Source of the DNA: a virus
Taxonomy: Duplodnaviria; Heunggongvirae; Uroviricota; Caudoviricetes
Length of the DNA stretch: 6,007 nt
IMG/VR virus record: IMGVR_UViG_2541047728_000008
Reading direction: 5' to 3' (one strand)
A program made the translations under genes and the position numbers. The notes beneath the pieces were generated by a model that did no database searches, was not told the DNA's origin, and worked only from the letters and a program-made list of their open reading frames with translations. The first letter of the stretch is position 1. Each line of letters opens with the position of its first letter. Positions 1,859 through 5,053 of this stretch are shown piece after piece.

Positions 1859-1874
1859 AGGGGAGCATATGACA

Positions 1875-1905
1875 CATAAAACAAAGGCGACCTGGGGCGG
1901 TCGCC
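1875..1905 (-). terminator. Rho-independent terminator for leftward transcription (possibly bidirectional)
   Basis: GC-rich 7-bp stem GGCGACC (1886-1892) / GGTCGCC (1899-1905) with 6-nt loop. On the minus strand the stem is followed by TTTGTTTTAT (plus 1875-1885). On the plus strand it follows the alpA stop but has only a weak AGTTTGG tail. Confidence 0.6.
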
Positions 1906-1969
1906 AGTTTGGAAACACTAAACATAAGCATGGCAATGATAGCCTCTATCAGGCTGGTGGGCAATGCTA

Positions 1970-2146
1970 TCAGTCTGTTTCAGTGCGTTGCCATAACTGC
2001 GAAGCTCTCTCCTTTGATGAGTATTCTTTAAGGTACTTCTCAAGGGCAAAAGAACACGGCGCGAATCGTTCTGATTCATGCTCTTTCTTTCTGCGTCGTC
2101 TTTTTCGTGCAGGTGATGTTTTTTCGGTTGATTCTTCGTTGGTCAT
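1970..2146 (-). CDS. Candidate small basic protein (58 aa), in frame with and downstream of the RHH gene
   Basis: Minus-strand ATG at 2146 to TGA at 1970-1972 encodes MTNEESTEKTSPARKRRRRKKEHESERFAPCSFALEKYLKEYSSKERASQLWQRTETD. Weak SD (AGG about 8 nt upstream). Same reading frame as the upstream RHH ORF, separated by a single TAA and 57 nt. Absent from the ORF track (below its length cutoff). Could be a real second cistron, a remnant of a longer ancestral gene, or non-coding. Confidence 0.3.
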   Translation of the reverse strand: MTNEESTEKTSPARKRRRRKKEHESERFAPCSFALEKYLKEYSSKERASQLWQRTETD

Positions 2147-2203
2147 TGTGTGCGCCTGTAAAGCAATGCGCCGGAGTTCCTCACACCACGGCGCTGATAG
2201 TGA

Positions 2204-2383
2204 TTATTCTGATTCTTTGGCCTTGCGACGCTGGCGGCGTTTGATCTCGCCTCGCATGGCTGTAACGATAAATTGCGCAGTGCTCTCGCCTGTTTCTTTT
2301 ACTTGCTCCATAGCCTCAACAACTTCATGCGGGGCGCGAGCCTGTAATTTCTGTGATTTGTTATTGATATGGTCTCTTTCCAT
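2204..2383 (-). CDS. Arc/Mnt-like ribbon-helix-helix (RHH) DNA-binding protein, putative repressor
   Basis: Minus-strand ORF, ATG at 2383 to TAA at 2204-2206, 59 aa: MERDHINNKSQKLQARAPHEVVEAMEQVKETGESTAQFIVTAMRGEIKRRQRRKAKESE. Good SD (AAGGGA, 7-nt spacing). The segment KLQARAPHEVVEAM-EQVKETGESTAQFIVTAMRGEI aligns by eye with the P22 Arc pattern (FNLRWPREVLDLV-RKVAEENGRSVNSEIYQRVMESF): beta-strand with R-x-P, helix A, Gly turn, S/T N-cap, helix B. Divergent from the downstream operon and adjacent to palindromic operators. Not in the ORF track. Confidence 0.65.
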   Translation of the reverse strand: MERDHINNKSQKLQARAPHEVVEAMEQVKETGESTAQFIVTAMRGEIKRRQRRKAKESE

Positions 2384-2403
2384 TTCTGGTTCCCTTTGTG
2401 ATT

Positions 2404-2416
2404 ACTGGAATCCAGT
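2404..2416. promoter_or_regulatory. Operator O1: 13-bp palindrome ACTGGAATCCAGT
   Basis: Perfect 6+1+6 inverted repeat (ACTGGA-A-TCCAGT). Overlaps the candidate -10 (TATACT on minus strand, plus 2414-2419) of the leftward promoter for the RHH gene. Confidence 0.55.
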
Positions 2417-2444
2417 ATACACGAAAAAGACCAAAACAAAACGC

Positions 2445-2474
2445 TTGAAGTGGATTCCACTTAGTGATTATACT
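2445..2474 (+). promoter_or_regulatory. Sigma70-type promoter for the rightward replication operon
   Basis: -35 TTGAAG (2445-2450), 18-bp spacer, -10 TATACT (2469-2474); predicted start near 2481. O2 and O3 overlap both hexamers. Confidence 0.5.
2449..2461. promoter_or_regulatory. Operator O2: 13-bp palindrome AGTGGATTCCACT
   Basis: Same core as O1/O3 (TGGA-W-TCCA) in opposite orientation, with flanking C/G swapped. Overlaps the -35 (TTGAAG, 2445-2450) of the rightward promoter and lies in its spacer. Confidence 0.5.
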
Positions 2475-2484
2475 GGAATCCAGT
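2472..2484. promoter_or_regulatory. Operator O3: 13-bp palindrome ACTGGAATCCAGT (identical to O1)
   Basis: Exact second copy of the O1 13-mer, 68 bp from O1. Overlaps the -10 (TATACT, 2469-2474) and predicted start site of the rightward promoter. Confidence 0.55.
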
Positions 2485-2502
2485 TGAGTGTTTATCACTC
2501 AA
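2484..2502 (+). other. 5'-leader hairpin / palindrome TTGAGTG-TTTAT-CACTCAA
   Basis: 7-bp perfect stem with 5-nt loop immediately downstream of the predicted start site; no U-tract follows, so not a terminator. The 3' arm ends at an in-frame ATG (2502), which it would sequester. Confidence 0.4.
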
Positions 2503-2579
2503 TGCAAACGAGGCTGAAAAGGATTGCCGTCCTTTCGCAGCCTCTGACCACCAACGATAGCGAAAGTATCGAGGTAGCT

Positions 2580-2783
2580 ATGAGAAATCATACCATACAC
2601 CCGCAAGGGCGGGACTCGCACAACCTGAATAAATACATCTGGCGTTTTATCGCCCTGAGCACGGCACAACCGCGCGTGATTACCATCGAGGCCACCAGCG
2701 AACAGGAAGCGCGTCAGCAATCTCCTGATGGCTGCGTGATGGTATTCGCCGCCCGTATTCGTCAGGGGGTGAGTCATGCATAA
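2580..2783 (+). CDS. Small protein (67 aa), first gene of rightward operon; function unknown
   Basis: ATG at 2580 preceded by GAGG (2571-2574) at 5-nt spacing; stop TAA 2781-2783. Product MRNHTIHPQGRDSHNLNKYIWRFIALSTAQPRVITIEATSEQEARQQSPDGCVMVFAARIRQGVSHA. This is the only protein-like part of the track's 304-aa ORF (1869..2783). From memory only, it may resemble small Icd-like proteins of P4-type islands; unverified. Alternative start ATG 2502 (93 aa) lacks an SD. Confidence 0.6.
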   Translation: MRNHTIHPQGRDSHNLNKYIWRFIALSTAQPRVITIEATSEQEARQQSPDGCVMVFAARIRQGVSHA

Positions 2784-3003
2784 AATACCCTTTGATGTTC
2801 TTGTTCATTCTGAAAACGCATTAATCCGCGCAAAGGAAATGGACGCATTACTACTTAAGTTAATTGATGTGCCGGAAAGTGGCGATGAATCTGATTCAAT
2901 GATGTTTTCTGCCGTGCGTACGCTATTAACGCCTGTTATTAATGAATTAAATACAGTGATGGCAATTCACGAGAATAATAAAGCGCAGCACACCGGAGAA
3001 TAA
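2776..3003 (+). CDS. Small acidic protein (75 aa), function unknown
   Basis: ATG 2776 overlaps the upstream stop (2781-2783) by 8 nt, indicating translational coupling; SD AGGGGGTGA upstream. Product is acidic (about 12 D/E versus 6 K/R) and probably helical. Confidence 0.6.
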   Translation: MHKIPFDVLVHSENALIRAKEMDALLLKLIDVPESGDESDSMMFSAVRTLLTPVINELNTVMAIHENNKAQHTGE

Positions 3004-3008
3004 AAAAC

Positions 3009-3308
3009 ATGAAAAATAAAAATTCTGGCGTTACTGCCAGCGGCCCCGCTCGTCCTGAATTTATGAACGGCGATATTTACCGCGATAAATATGGCGGCAT
3101 GGTAACGATTAAAGGCGTGGCAGAACGGCGCATCACCTACCGTCGTGAAGGCTACGAATATGATTGCGTGATGCCTGTTTATCAGTTCGATCGTGATTTT
3201 TCTCTGGTGCAGGCAGTACCGCGTAGCGTGCCCACCAGCAGGGAGAAAGCACGCGCCAATATTCAGGAAATAAAAAAGATGCTTAACGTATTCAGGGGTA
3301 AAAAATGA
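3009..3308 (+). CDS. Small protein (99 aa), function unknown
   Basis: ATG 3009 lies 5 nt after the upstream stop, with GGAGAA SD at 8-nt spacing; stop TGA 3306-3308 overlaps the next start (ATGA). No recognisable motif. Confidence 0.55.
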   Translation: MKNKNSGVTASGPARPEFMNGDIYRDKYGGMVTIKGVAERRITYRREGYEYDCVMPVYQFDRDFSLVQAVPRSVPTSREKARANIQEIKKMLNVFRGKK

Positions 3309-5053
3309 AACTGGCACCGAACGTAAAAAAACAGCCACGCGGAATAAAACACAAAGACACAGAGGTAATTATTTTCGCGGGTAGTGATGCCTGGTCGCAC
3401 GCGAAACAATGGCAGGAGCAGGATGGCCCCGCATCCGGCGATAATGTGCCGCCTGTGTGGCTTGGGCCAAATCAGCTTGCCGAACTTGATGCACTGAAAA
3501 TTGTTCCGGATGGAAAAAAACGCGTAAGGCTGTACCAGGCCGGAGAACTGGATTTGGTGGAGACCAAAAAGATTGGTCAGAAGCTGGCGGCGGCAGATAT
3601 TCAGGACGCAAATTTTTACCCCGAAGGAATGCACGTCCAGAAGTGTGAAAACTGGCGGCGCTATCTGAATGCTGAGCGTGAAAATATTGCCGCAGGGCTT
3701 ACCATGCCGGAGCAGAAAAATACGCAACTGGCACAAATGGCAGACAGTGAGCGCGCACAGATGCTTGCTGGTCGATTTGATGGCGTTTGTGTGCATCCGG
3801 AAAGTGAAATCGTTCACGTATGGCGCGGCGGGGTATGGTGTCCGGTCAGCACAATGGAACTTAGCCGCGAAATGGTGGCGATCTATTCAGAGCACAGGGC
3901 CACTTTCAGCAAGCGCGTAATCAATAACGCCGTGGAAGCGTTAAAAGTTATTGCCGAACCAATGGGCGAGCCGTCCGGCGATTTGCTGCCGTTCGCCAAT
4001 GGTGCGCTTGACCTGAAAACGGGGGAATTTTCCCCGCACACGCCGGAGAACTGGATCACCACGAACAACGGCATTGAGTACACGCCACCAGCACCAGGGG
4101 AGAACATCCGCGATAACGCGCCAAACTTTCATAAATGGCTTGAGCACGCAGCCGGAAAAGACTCGCGCAAGATGATGCGTATATGTGCCGCGCTGTACAT
4201 GATTATGGCGAACCGGTACGACTGGCAGATGTTTATTGAGGCCACCGGAGACGGCGGGAGCGGTAAAAGTACATTCACACACATCGCCAGCCTTCTGGCA
4301 GGGAAACAGAACACGGTGAGCGCGGAGATGACATCGCTTGATGATGCTGGTGGGCGTGCGCAGGTTGTCGGGAGTCGTCTTATCGTCCTGGCAGACCAGC
4401 CGAAATATACAGGCGAAGGCACGGGCATCAAGAAAATCACGGGCGGCGACCCCGTGGAAATCAACCCGAAATATGAAAAGCGTTTCACTACGGTAATCAG
4501 GGCGGTGGTGCTGGCGACCAATAACAACCCGATGATATTCACCGAACGGGCCGGAGGCGTGTCACGTCGTCGGGTTATTTTCCGCTTCGACAATATCGTA
4601 AGCGAGGCAGAAAAAGACAGGGAGCTACCGGAAAAGATTGCGGCTGAAATCCCTGTCATTATCCGCCGCTTGCTGGCGAACTTTGCCGACCCTGAAAAGG
4701 CACGGGCTTTACTCATTGAACAGCGAGACGGTGATGAAGCACTGGCGATAAAGCAGCAGACGGATCCGGTTATTGAGTTTTGCCAGTTCCTGAATTTTCT
4801 GGAGGAAGCGCGCGGCCTGATGATGGGCGGCGGCGGTGACTCTGTCAGGTACACGACCAGAAACAGCCTTTACCGCGTCTATCTGGCGTTTATGGCGTAT
4901 GCAGGCAGGAGCAAACCGCTAAACGTAAATGACTTTGGCAAGGCTATGAAGCCAGCCGCGAAAGTTTACGGACATGAATATATTACGCGGAAAGTTAAGG
5001 GAGTAACGCAGACTAACGCAATAACAACAGACGATTGCGACGCGTTTTTATAA
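3305..5053 (+). CDS. Replication protein: SF3 (D5/P4-alpha C-terminal type) helicase-NTPase, putative primase-helicase
   Basis: 582-aa ORF with SD AGGGGT and ATGA overlap with the upstream gene. Walker A GDGGSGKST (aa 315-323, nt 4247-4273), Walker B-like RLIVLADQ (aa 358-365), SF3 motif C VVLATNNNP (aa 401-409). Upstream conserved block LPFANGALDLKTGEFSPHTPENWITTNNGIEYTP is typical of the D5_N / P4-family primase C-terminal region. Shorter than P4 alpha (about 777 aa), so a full primase domain is not demonstrated. Confidence 0.85.
   Translation: MKLAPNVKKQPRGIKHKDTEVIIFAGSDAWSHAKQWQEQDGPASGDNVPPVWLGPNQLAELDALKIVPDGKKRVRLYQAGELDLVETKKIGQKLAAADIQDANFYPEGMHVQKCENWRRYLNAERENIAAGLTMPEQKNTQLAQMADSERAQMLAGRFDGVCVHPESEIVHVWRGGVWCPVSTMELSREMVAIYSEHRATFSKRVINNAVEALKVIAEPMGEPSGDLLPFANGALDLKTGEFSPHTPENWITTNNGIEYTPPAPGENIRDNAPNFHKWLEHAAGKDSRKMMRICAALYMIMANRYDWQMFIEATGDGGSGKSTFTHIASLLAGKQNTVSAEMTSLDDAGGRAQVVGSRLIVLADQPKYTGEGTGIKKITGGDPVEINPKYEKRFTTVIRAVVLATNNNPMIFTERAGGVSRRRVIFRFDNIVSEAEKDRELPEKIAAEIPVIIRRLLANFADPEKARALLIEQRDGDEALAIKQQTDPVIEFCQFLNFLEEARGLMMGGGGDSVRYTTRNSLYRVYLAFMAYAGRSKPLNVNDFGKAMKPAAKVYGHEYITRKVKGVTQTNAITTDDCDAFL

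Follow-up and report, generated by a model that had tools for sequence, protein, structure and literature searches.

In the immI region of phage P22 (Mnt/Arc, Pant/Pmnt) two small RHH repressors use an N-terminal β-ribbon to read operators placed over closely spaced divergent promoters, are subject to negative autoregulation and control an antirepressor. In phage lambda, CI and Cro share the tripartite operator OR, which consists of adjacent 17-mers between the divergent promoters PR and PRM. The lambda repressor is an HTH protein with a RecA-sensitive C-terminal domain, its gene is directed away from the lytic operon, and the region is an exchangeable immunity cassette with many specificities. 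The repressor gene of the Gram-positive PICIs (SaPIs) lies divergent from the xis/replication operon, at the position known from Rpr (PMC6092414), and the Stl proteins are larger HTH proteins whose repression is lifted by helper-phage proteins. Antisense RNA is used for control in the immI region of P1/P7 (c4 RNA-icd-ant) and by the CI RNA of P4. For the Gram-negative PICIs, Fillol-Salom et al. put induction under the activator AlpA, and EcCICFT073 was used in that work. AlpA is the published regulator of these islands, and their global repressor has been called 'unclear' (PMC6092414). Overexpression of AlpA alone induces excision and replication of EcCICFT073 (PMC6092414).

Here we analyse a stretch of 6007 bp (the window) in which three 13-bp sites separate a small leftward gene from a rightward operon that ends in a primase gene. 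Judged from the sequences of this element and its relatives, the sites are probably the operators of an autoregulated 59-aa RHH repressor (2383-2204) which silences the promoter of the replication operon. Functionally this arrangement comes closest to P22 immI and by position it comes closest to Stl/Rpr, but it is a member of neither system. Common to P22 immI and our proposal are a small RHH repressor, its N-terminal β-ribbon (proposed here), closely spaced divergent promoters and negative autoregulation. However, P22 has two RHH genes and our element one, there is no ant gene in the window, and the three 13-bp sites found here are dispersed and have a variable core between conserved TG/CA arms. 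The controlled genes are those of a replication operon (icd-like to primase) and not an antirepressor, and the sequence similarity is marginal (probability 20%). The likeness to lambda OR lies in the tripartite operator between divergent promoters (predicted here), in the repressor gene which is directed away from the replication operon, and in the exchangeable cassette with many specificities. In contrast to lambda the protein is of the RHH type, no Cro analogue was found, the sites are spaced by 45 and 23 bp, and nothing points to an activated repressor promoter. With Stl/Rpr the locus shares the position of the repressor gene and the presumed role, that is, to keep the island quiescent, but there is no homology. 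The plasmid RHH repressors CopG, omega and ParG differ from our case, an integrated satellite, in their setting as well as in site architecture, and many specificity types are found here.

The element and its genes

The window is a Gram-negative PICI, a satellite of E. coli phages. This follows from the presence of int and alpA, from the gene order, which is the same as in the published model PICI EcCICFT073 (including the YlcI/YnfO gene and the icd-like gene), and from the identical locus L001, in which the element runs on into terS and the major capsid gene and is situated between cspD-side genes and clpS. The element carries what characterizes a Gram-negative PICI, a small island at a chromosomal att site: int, alpA and a P4/D5-type primase (Pfam and NCBIfam) with a putative origin downstream, and, as seen in L001, packaging/capsid genes.

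The tyrosine integrase gene (1-1239) is followed by alpA (1649-1858), both assigned by Pfam/NCBIfam. Convergent with alpA is a leftward operon on the minus strand. It contains the gene for the 59-aa YlcI/YnfO-family protein (2204-2383, NF041551), our proposed RHH repressor, and as its second gene that for a basic protein of 58 aa (1970-2146, phrog_21027). The operon ends at a terminator-like hairpin (1886-1905, minus strand) which lies between it and alpA. This hairpin is GC-rich, and its T-run is good on the minus strand and only weak on the plus strand, so that alpA transcription might run antisense into the RHH region. The 58-aa protein carries the conserved motif EHESERFAPCxFALExFLKEY, is present in some relatives and not in others, and has no match among the Pfam and PADLOC families and none to a toxin/defence family. 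Some relatives encode Bro-N or AntA proteins on the alpA side.

On the plus strand, the ORFs for the icd-like protein (2580-2783), orf75 (2776-3003), DUF4222 (3009-3308) and the D5/P4-type primase-helicase (3305-5053) overlap or abut and appear to form one operon (2580-5053; Pfam and NCBIfam families). The first-pass annotation had proposed that the sites control the replication module, and this ORF order and the family assignments support it, as the predicted rightward promoter stands in front of the operon whose last gene encodes the primase. Behind the primase gene come repeats and then ssb. Between 5060 and 5300, just 3′ of the primase gene, direct and inverted copies of GTCTACC/GGTAGAC are clustered (e.g. 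CTGTCTACCTTGTCTACCTG twice); from their sequence they look like the iterons of an origin. A further open frame of 304 codons (1869-2783, plus strand) reads through the RHH gene in antisense, crosses the operators and terminates in the frame of the icd-like gene. It is probably spurious because the intergenic length differs by non-multiples of three among relatives. The frame could mislead gene callers and mask small leftward genes.

Parts of the window are matched in 1919 of 5426 complete E. coli genomes. The switch region of 401 bp is 100% identical in E. coli O157 AR-0427; an at least partial match to it is present in 1337 of the 5426 genomes, and in 324 of them coverage is 80% or more. Up to six matching places per E. 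coli genome were counted. GenBank phages gave no match, neither to the window with megablast nor to the RHH protein with tblastn.

Three sites and two predicted divergent promoters

Re-reading the sequence returned the 13-mers of the first-pass annotation, namely ACTGGAATCCAGT at 2404-2416 (O1) and again at 2472-2484 (O3), and the inverted variant AGTGGATTCCACT at 2449-2461 (O2). A count of the consensus elsewhere had been proposed as a check. When up to two mismatches are allowed, ASTGGAWTCCAST matches just these three sites within the 6007 bp, against 0.22 expected; three matches did not occur in any of 200 dinucleotide-preserving shuffles. In the 24.4-kb homologous locus L001 there is one extra match only, which has two mismatches and is at chance level.

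The rightward promoter that had been claimed was recovered by a consensus scan with 9 of 12 matches. It consists of TTGAAG (2445-2450, plus strand), an 18-bp spacer and TATACT (2469-2474), and its predicted start is near 2481. O2, exactly 45 bp from O1, overlaps the last two bases of the −35 element and fills the spacer. O3, 23 bp from O2, covers the last three bases of the −10 element and the start-site region. The position attributed to O1, over the −10 of a candidate leftward promoter of the RHH gene, was also confirmed, since the minus-strand TATACT (2419-2414) overlaps it. A repeat finder shows that O1 followed by ATA and TAT followed by O3 make up a 16-nt inverted repeat; the leftward −10 thus overlaps O1 the way the rightward −10 overlaps O3. 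The predicted leftward start is near 2407, and O1 would therefore cover the −10/+1 region. The leftward promoter is weak. Its −35 element, TTTTGT (2441-2436, minus strand; 16-bp spacer), is poor, and the promoter scan gives only 7 of 12 matches, which counts against our explanation. A leftward promoter-like site with a better score, TAAACA-16-TATAAT at 2494-2467 (minus strand, 10 of 12 matches), has a −10 which interlocks with the rightward −10. As it occurs in this window only and not in relatives, we have set it aside for the conserved TATACT at O1.

Two details of the earlier description stand only in part. GTGATT, said to precede both O1 and O3, abuts O1 (2398-2403), but it is two bases away from O3 (2464-2469) and is not conserved in relatives. 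The sites are palindromes in this element, but most relatives have an asymmetric core between the conserved TG...CA arms and carry O2 and O3 in the same orientation.

For comparison we used about 27 homologous loci from at least 12 enterobacterial genera; 23 of them were scanned for sites, and 17 non-redundant elements were aligned. The loci were taken from E. coli genome matches of about 70% identity, from a scan of species-representative genomes, from contigs with chosen homologues and from CFT073. They represent E. coli, E. ruysiae, Citrobacter, Enterobacter, Pseudocitrobacter, Superficieibacter, Cedecea, Dryocola, Edwardsiella, Serratia, Xenorhabdus and Jinshanibacter. In these loci the layout is fixed. 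O1 and the start codon of the small gene are about 20 bp apart, an offset that is kept in nearly all of the 23 scanned loci, and O1 is followed by ATAC. Exactly 45 bp beyond O1 comes O2, abutting a TTGA(C/A)G −35 element, and after another 23-25 or 35-38 bp comes O3, on or just past the rightward −10. When the 17 elements are aligned, the columns without variation are those equivalent to A-11 and T-7 of the leftward promoter, the TTG of the rightward −35 and T-7 of the rightward −10; the A after TTG is nearly invariant. Invariant as well are the TG and CA arms of O2, while the 5-7 bp between the arms vary by element. With a simple promoter scan the rightward promoter is found at the same position in 13 of the 17 elements with at least 8 of 12 matches, and a weak leftward promoter, TTxxxx-16/17-TATACT, is seen at O1 in most of them. 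The conserved positions, together with the concerted evolution of the copies (see below), argue for the earlier prediction that the three sites are operators, and the invariance of the critical bases across the aligned elements argues for their overlap with two divergent promoters.

Database matches are often confined either to the 3′ end of the repressor gene or to the leader and the start of the icd-like gene. Such partial matches point to a variable cassette with conserved sequence on both sides, similar to the immunity regions of phages. We suggest that the N-terminal half of the gene and the operators constitute an exchangeable immunity cassette of about 300 bp, of which there appear to be at least 11 versions with different DNA specificity.

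Several loci depart from this scheme or extend it. In L009 (E. coli A19) and L017 (Edwardsiella hoshinae), both of the QTVAAR type, O1 is degenerate and the leftward −10 reads CATACT; an extra site, GTGTTCAACAC, is located 16 bp upstream of O2 and abuts the −35 from the opposite side. One element (L006 1505-2620, E. coli SMBL, NZ_CP061914) has two complete RHH/operator modules in tandem. They differ in specificity type, GTGTATTTCAC versus GTGGCTGACAC, and each is accompanied by a small downstream ORF. The K-12 paralogue ynfO (L025 4757-4990, Qin prophage) was discarded as an informative relative, as it lies beside lambda-like cos/nohA and is without the three-site architecture. YnfO has an RHH-like N-terminal pattern, RNIRFPNQMIEQINIALEQKGSGNFSAWVIEA. 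We also scanned viral contigs for the 14-mer TACTGGAATCCAGT and obtained mostly single matches, as expected of a chance 14-mer. The 68-bp pair was present in three viral-contig loci only, and these are the same module. The scan thus gave no evidence of an operator on helper phages.

The small protein and its proposed reading head

The NCBIfam family NF041551 (YlcI/YnfO) matches residues 9-50 of the 59-aa protein, a 42-residue N-terminal domain, with 72.3 bits at a cut-off of 30. The identical RefSeq protein WP_000439004 is annotated as YlcI/YnfO family, too, and the family comprises 757 clusters at 90% identity. Residues 10-17 are the proposed reading head. Arg16 is invariant, and the basic C-terminal tail GEIKRRQRRKAKESE is nearly so. 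At 59 aa the protein is without an S24 domain and without a LexA-like cleavage domain.

The adjacent small gene had been taken for an RHH gene in the first-pass annotation, and its fold model is indeed RHH-like and matches RHH repressors and antitoxins. Two helices with a G-x-S/T turn and the helix packing of the RHH superfamily are predicted. The region where the N-terminal β-strand is expected has short helical turns in the monomer model (residues 8-16). With hhalign, residues 9-18 fall on the strand of Arc with a pairwise E-value of 0.0011 and a probability of just 20%, and at this probability residues 12, 14 and 16 are paired with Q9, N11 and R13 of Arc. These three are the base-contacting residues in the structure of the Arc-operator complex. 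Among the Pfam RHH families none scored above threshold; PSK_trans_fac, CB_ParB_C and HicB were found below it. A sequence profile search of the PDB gave nothing relevant to the small protein.

Comparison with homologous elements had been proposed in order to see whether the operators co-vary with the RHH protein. The result is positive, as the operator core of an element goes with the amino acids at positions 12 and 14 of its small protein. There are at least 11 types of core, and all copies inside one element change together. The core identity of O1 and O2 is 0.88 within the same element versus 0.60 between head groups. Not one of 100000 partner permutations reaches the concerted value, and the result holds when each head group is represented once (n = 10). 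When paired elements of different genera share a head, the identity is 0.96 in the O2 core, 0.73 in the O1-O2 spacer and 0.53 in the 5′UTR of the RHH gene; the respective values for pairs with different heads are 0.61, 0.66 and 0.52. The observed association of head and core is reached by none of 20000 label shuffles.

The head K-S-Q-K-(L/V)-Q-(A/T)-R is found with the core TGGA(A/T)TCCA in E. coli, Serratia, Xenorhabdus and another enterobacterial genome (L023), and the head Q-(A/S)-L-K-A-R with GTGGGCCAC in E. coli including EcCICFT073, in Pseudocitrobacter, in Enterobacter and in L148. The other pairs of head and core are Q-Q-L-N-A-R with GTGCGATTCAC, Q-M-T-T-(V/I)-R with GTGTATTTCAC, K-K-L-E-A-R with GTGGCTGACAC, Q-S-V-T-A-R with GTGTAAGACAC, Q-T-V-A-A-R with GTGTTTAACAC, Q-K-M-Q-A-R with GTGGAGCACAC, R-Q-K-T-A-R with GTGGGAGTCAC, Q-K-M-S-A-R with GTGGGTGCCAC and Q-K-T-S-V-R with GTGTCCxxCAC. 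Some loci were fetched after the pattern had been seen. The K12/Q14 heads of Serratia (L018) and Xenorhabdus (L020) came with the core TGGAATCCA, as anticipated; an S12/K14 head had the same GTGGGCCAC core as A12/K14; and the new head KTSVR was accompanied by a new core. The head KMQAR of L012 is K12/Q14 as in the window, yet its core GTGGAGCAC is partly different. Residues besides 12 and 14 must therefore contribute.

We note that gene and operators are tightly linked, and part of the co-variation is therefore co-inheritance. Linkage is, however, unlikely to be the whole explanation, because the sites are better kept than the DNA between them and the three copies change in concert. The comparison, with at least 11 types in at least 12 genera, suggests that alternate residues of the strand set operator specificity, which is a trait of RHH proteins.

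Proposed control and its alternatives

Our proposal is grounded in the sites, their conserved placement and concerted change, the co-variation with the head and the RHH-like fold; from these we infer binding, repression, the transcription start sites and the lifting of repression. Dimers of the RHH protein would put their N-terminal β-ribbon into the major groove, and the core of the site would be read by the invariant Arg16 and the variable residues 12 and 14. Occupancy of O2 in the spacer by the −35 and of O3 at −10/+1 would then occlude the near-consensus rightward promoter, and the icd-like/DUF4222/primase operon would be silent. In some relatives O3 would cover the early transcribed region instead of −10/+1. 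The positions of the sites, in the spacer and at −10/+1 of a near-consensus promoter with a spacer of 17-18 bp, are those of steric repression. Since such a promoter needs no activator, occupancy should block RNA polymerase, as far as the positions tell. Occupancy of O1, at −10/+1 of the weak leftward promoter, would bring about negative autoregulation.

Candidates for the lifting of repression are AlpA-driven transcription from upstream and an anti-repressor. One may speculate that the alpA promoter is read through across the convergent leftward operon, antisense to the RHH gene and on into the replication operon. It is also conceivable that the Bro/Ant proteins, which many relatives encode between alpA and the module, lift repression. 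As AlpA alone induces EcCICFT073, the repressor must be overridden or bypassed there, or it is not the main brake.

The first-pass annotation had likened the locus to a bistable switch in the style of lambda OR or P22 immI. A rightward product, for instance the Icd-like protein, would then be the analogue of Cro or Arc. Three sites between divergent promoters would suit such a two-regulator switch, and PHROGs calls the Icd-like protein (phrog_6196 and phrog_1743) a 'transcriptional repressor'. NCBIfam, however, names it a cell-division inhibitor family, and it is 91-94% identical across elements with three operator types; it does not co-vary with the variable cores and thus cannot read them. 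Moreover, a second RHH or HTH gene is not present in the rightward operon (Pfam, NCBIfam, PHROGs). As no second, Cro-like regulator on the same operators was found, bistability is not supported and we consider a two-regulator switch unlikely. We give somewhat less credit to a toxin-antitoxin operon, in which an RHH antitoxin would control no promoter but its own, jointly with the 58-aa protein, and O2 and O3 would lie on the rightward promoter incidentally. This 58-aa ORF, which has no Pfam or PADLOC match (see above), is absent from L002-L005, where the RHH gene and all operators are retained. Two of the three operators are placed on invariant elements of the rightward promoter and not on the leftward one, and where an antitoxin would have a variable toxin-binding segment, the C-terminal tail forms a basic helix that hardly varies. 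The dispensable downstream ORF and the two sites at the other promoter lead us to reject this reading.

The genes of AlpA and the integrase adjoin, and the sites could belong to another binder such as AlpA/excisionase, the integrase (arm sites), the primase/initiator or a host protein. Hairpins in RNA or DNA could also be involved, as O2 and O3 of the window contain a 12-nt inverted repeat that might pair. We hold this group of readings for very improbable. One identical AlpA (WP_000953271) is found together with three operator types, the putative origin iterons 3′ of the primase gene differ in sequence from the sites, and it is only the RHH reading head that co-varies with the core. A hairpin is not conserved in relatives and is excluded by the mostly asymmetric cores and the direct repetition of O2 and O3. 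For chance repeats without function only the shortness of the sites can be put forward. With the outcome of the shuffles, and with conserved positions and concerted copies across at least 12 genera, we regard chance as refuted. In our view an autoregulated RHH repressor is thus the best explanation of the three sites.

The rightward transcript is predicted to start with a structured 5′ leader (2483-2571, plus strand) of three hairpins with an MFE of −34 kcal/mol and a z of −3.6; none of 200 shuffles is as stable. A 5′-terminal hairpin (2483-2503) precedes a GC-rich middle hairpin (2510-2544), which is followed by the near-invariant UCU(A/G)ACCA, and the Shine-Dalgarno sequence forms the end of a small third hairpin (2555-2571). 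The pairing of the middle and the small hairpin is kept via compensatory changes in the 17 elements (RNAalifold, 10 of 14 pairs with compensatory changes). The controlled operon opens with an icd-like gene and has a conserved structured leader in front of it, which is reminiscent of P1/P7 immI and the CI RNA of P4. In these systems control is by antisense RNA, whereas here we predict control by a protein on DNA. A search of Rfam with the whole window (E ≤ 1) gave no match, including C4 and isrK, and the leader is therefore not a recognisable C4, isrK or CI immunity RNA.

We found no paper on the function of YlcI/YnfO/DUF3950, and the proposed role would be the first for this family. Nor did we find an RHH regulator described for PICIs in the literature, of which mainly the open-access part was covered, so that an earlier description is possible. 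Tentatively, we put forward that the RHH protein could be the missing master repressor and immunity determinant of the Gram-negative PICIs, with the specificity types as immunity groups and with AlpA overriding it. If this were true, the at least 11 specificity classes would let several satellites co-reside; the up to six matching places per E. coli genome and the one two-module element bear on this reading. Helper-triggered AlpA would then induce the island by overriding the repressor, either by the antisense transcription considered above or through a Bro/Ant-type anti-repressor. Although the mechanism is conventional, the target appears useful to the field. The matched pairs of head and operator offer a ready-made recognition code for a minimal RHH protein, and synthetic biology could draw on them for mutually orthogonal repressors of 59 aa.

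The module provides a concrete and testable repressor candidate within EcCICFT073 itself, and it goes unmentioned in the publications on Gram-negative PICIs, EcCICFT073 included, that we covered. It is located at L027 9474-9653 (CFT073 NC_004431 1380473-1380652) and has the QALK head and GTGGGCCAC operators. In CFT073 the RHH gene, the icd-like gene and the downstream small gene have out-of-series tags (C_RS30120, C_RS30125, C_RS30800), which suggests that these genes were added on re-annotation. The tag C_RS30120 falls between C_RS06940 and C_RS06960, and the RHH gene was thus probably not part of the original annotation.
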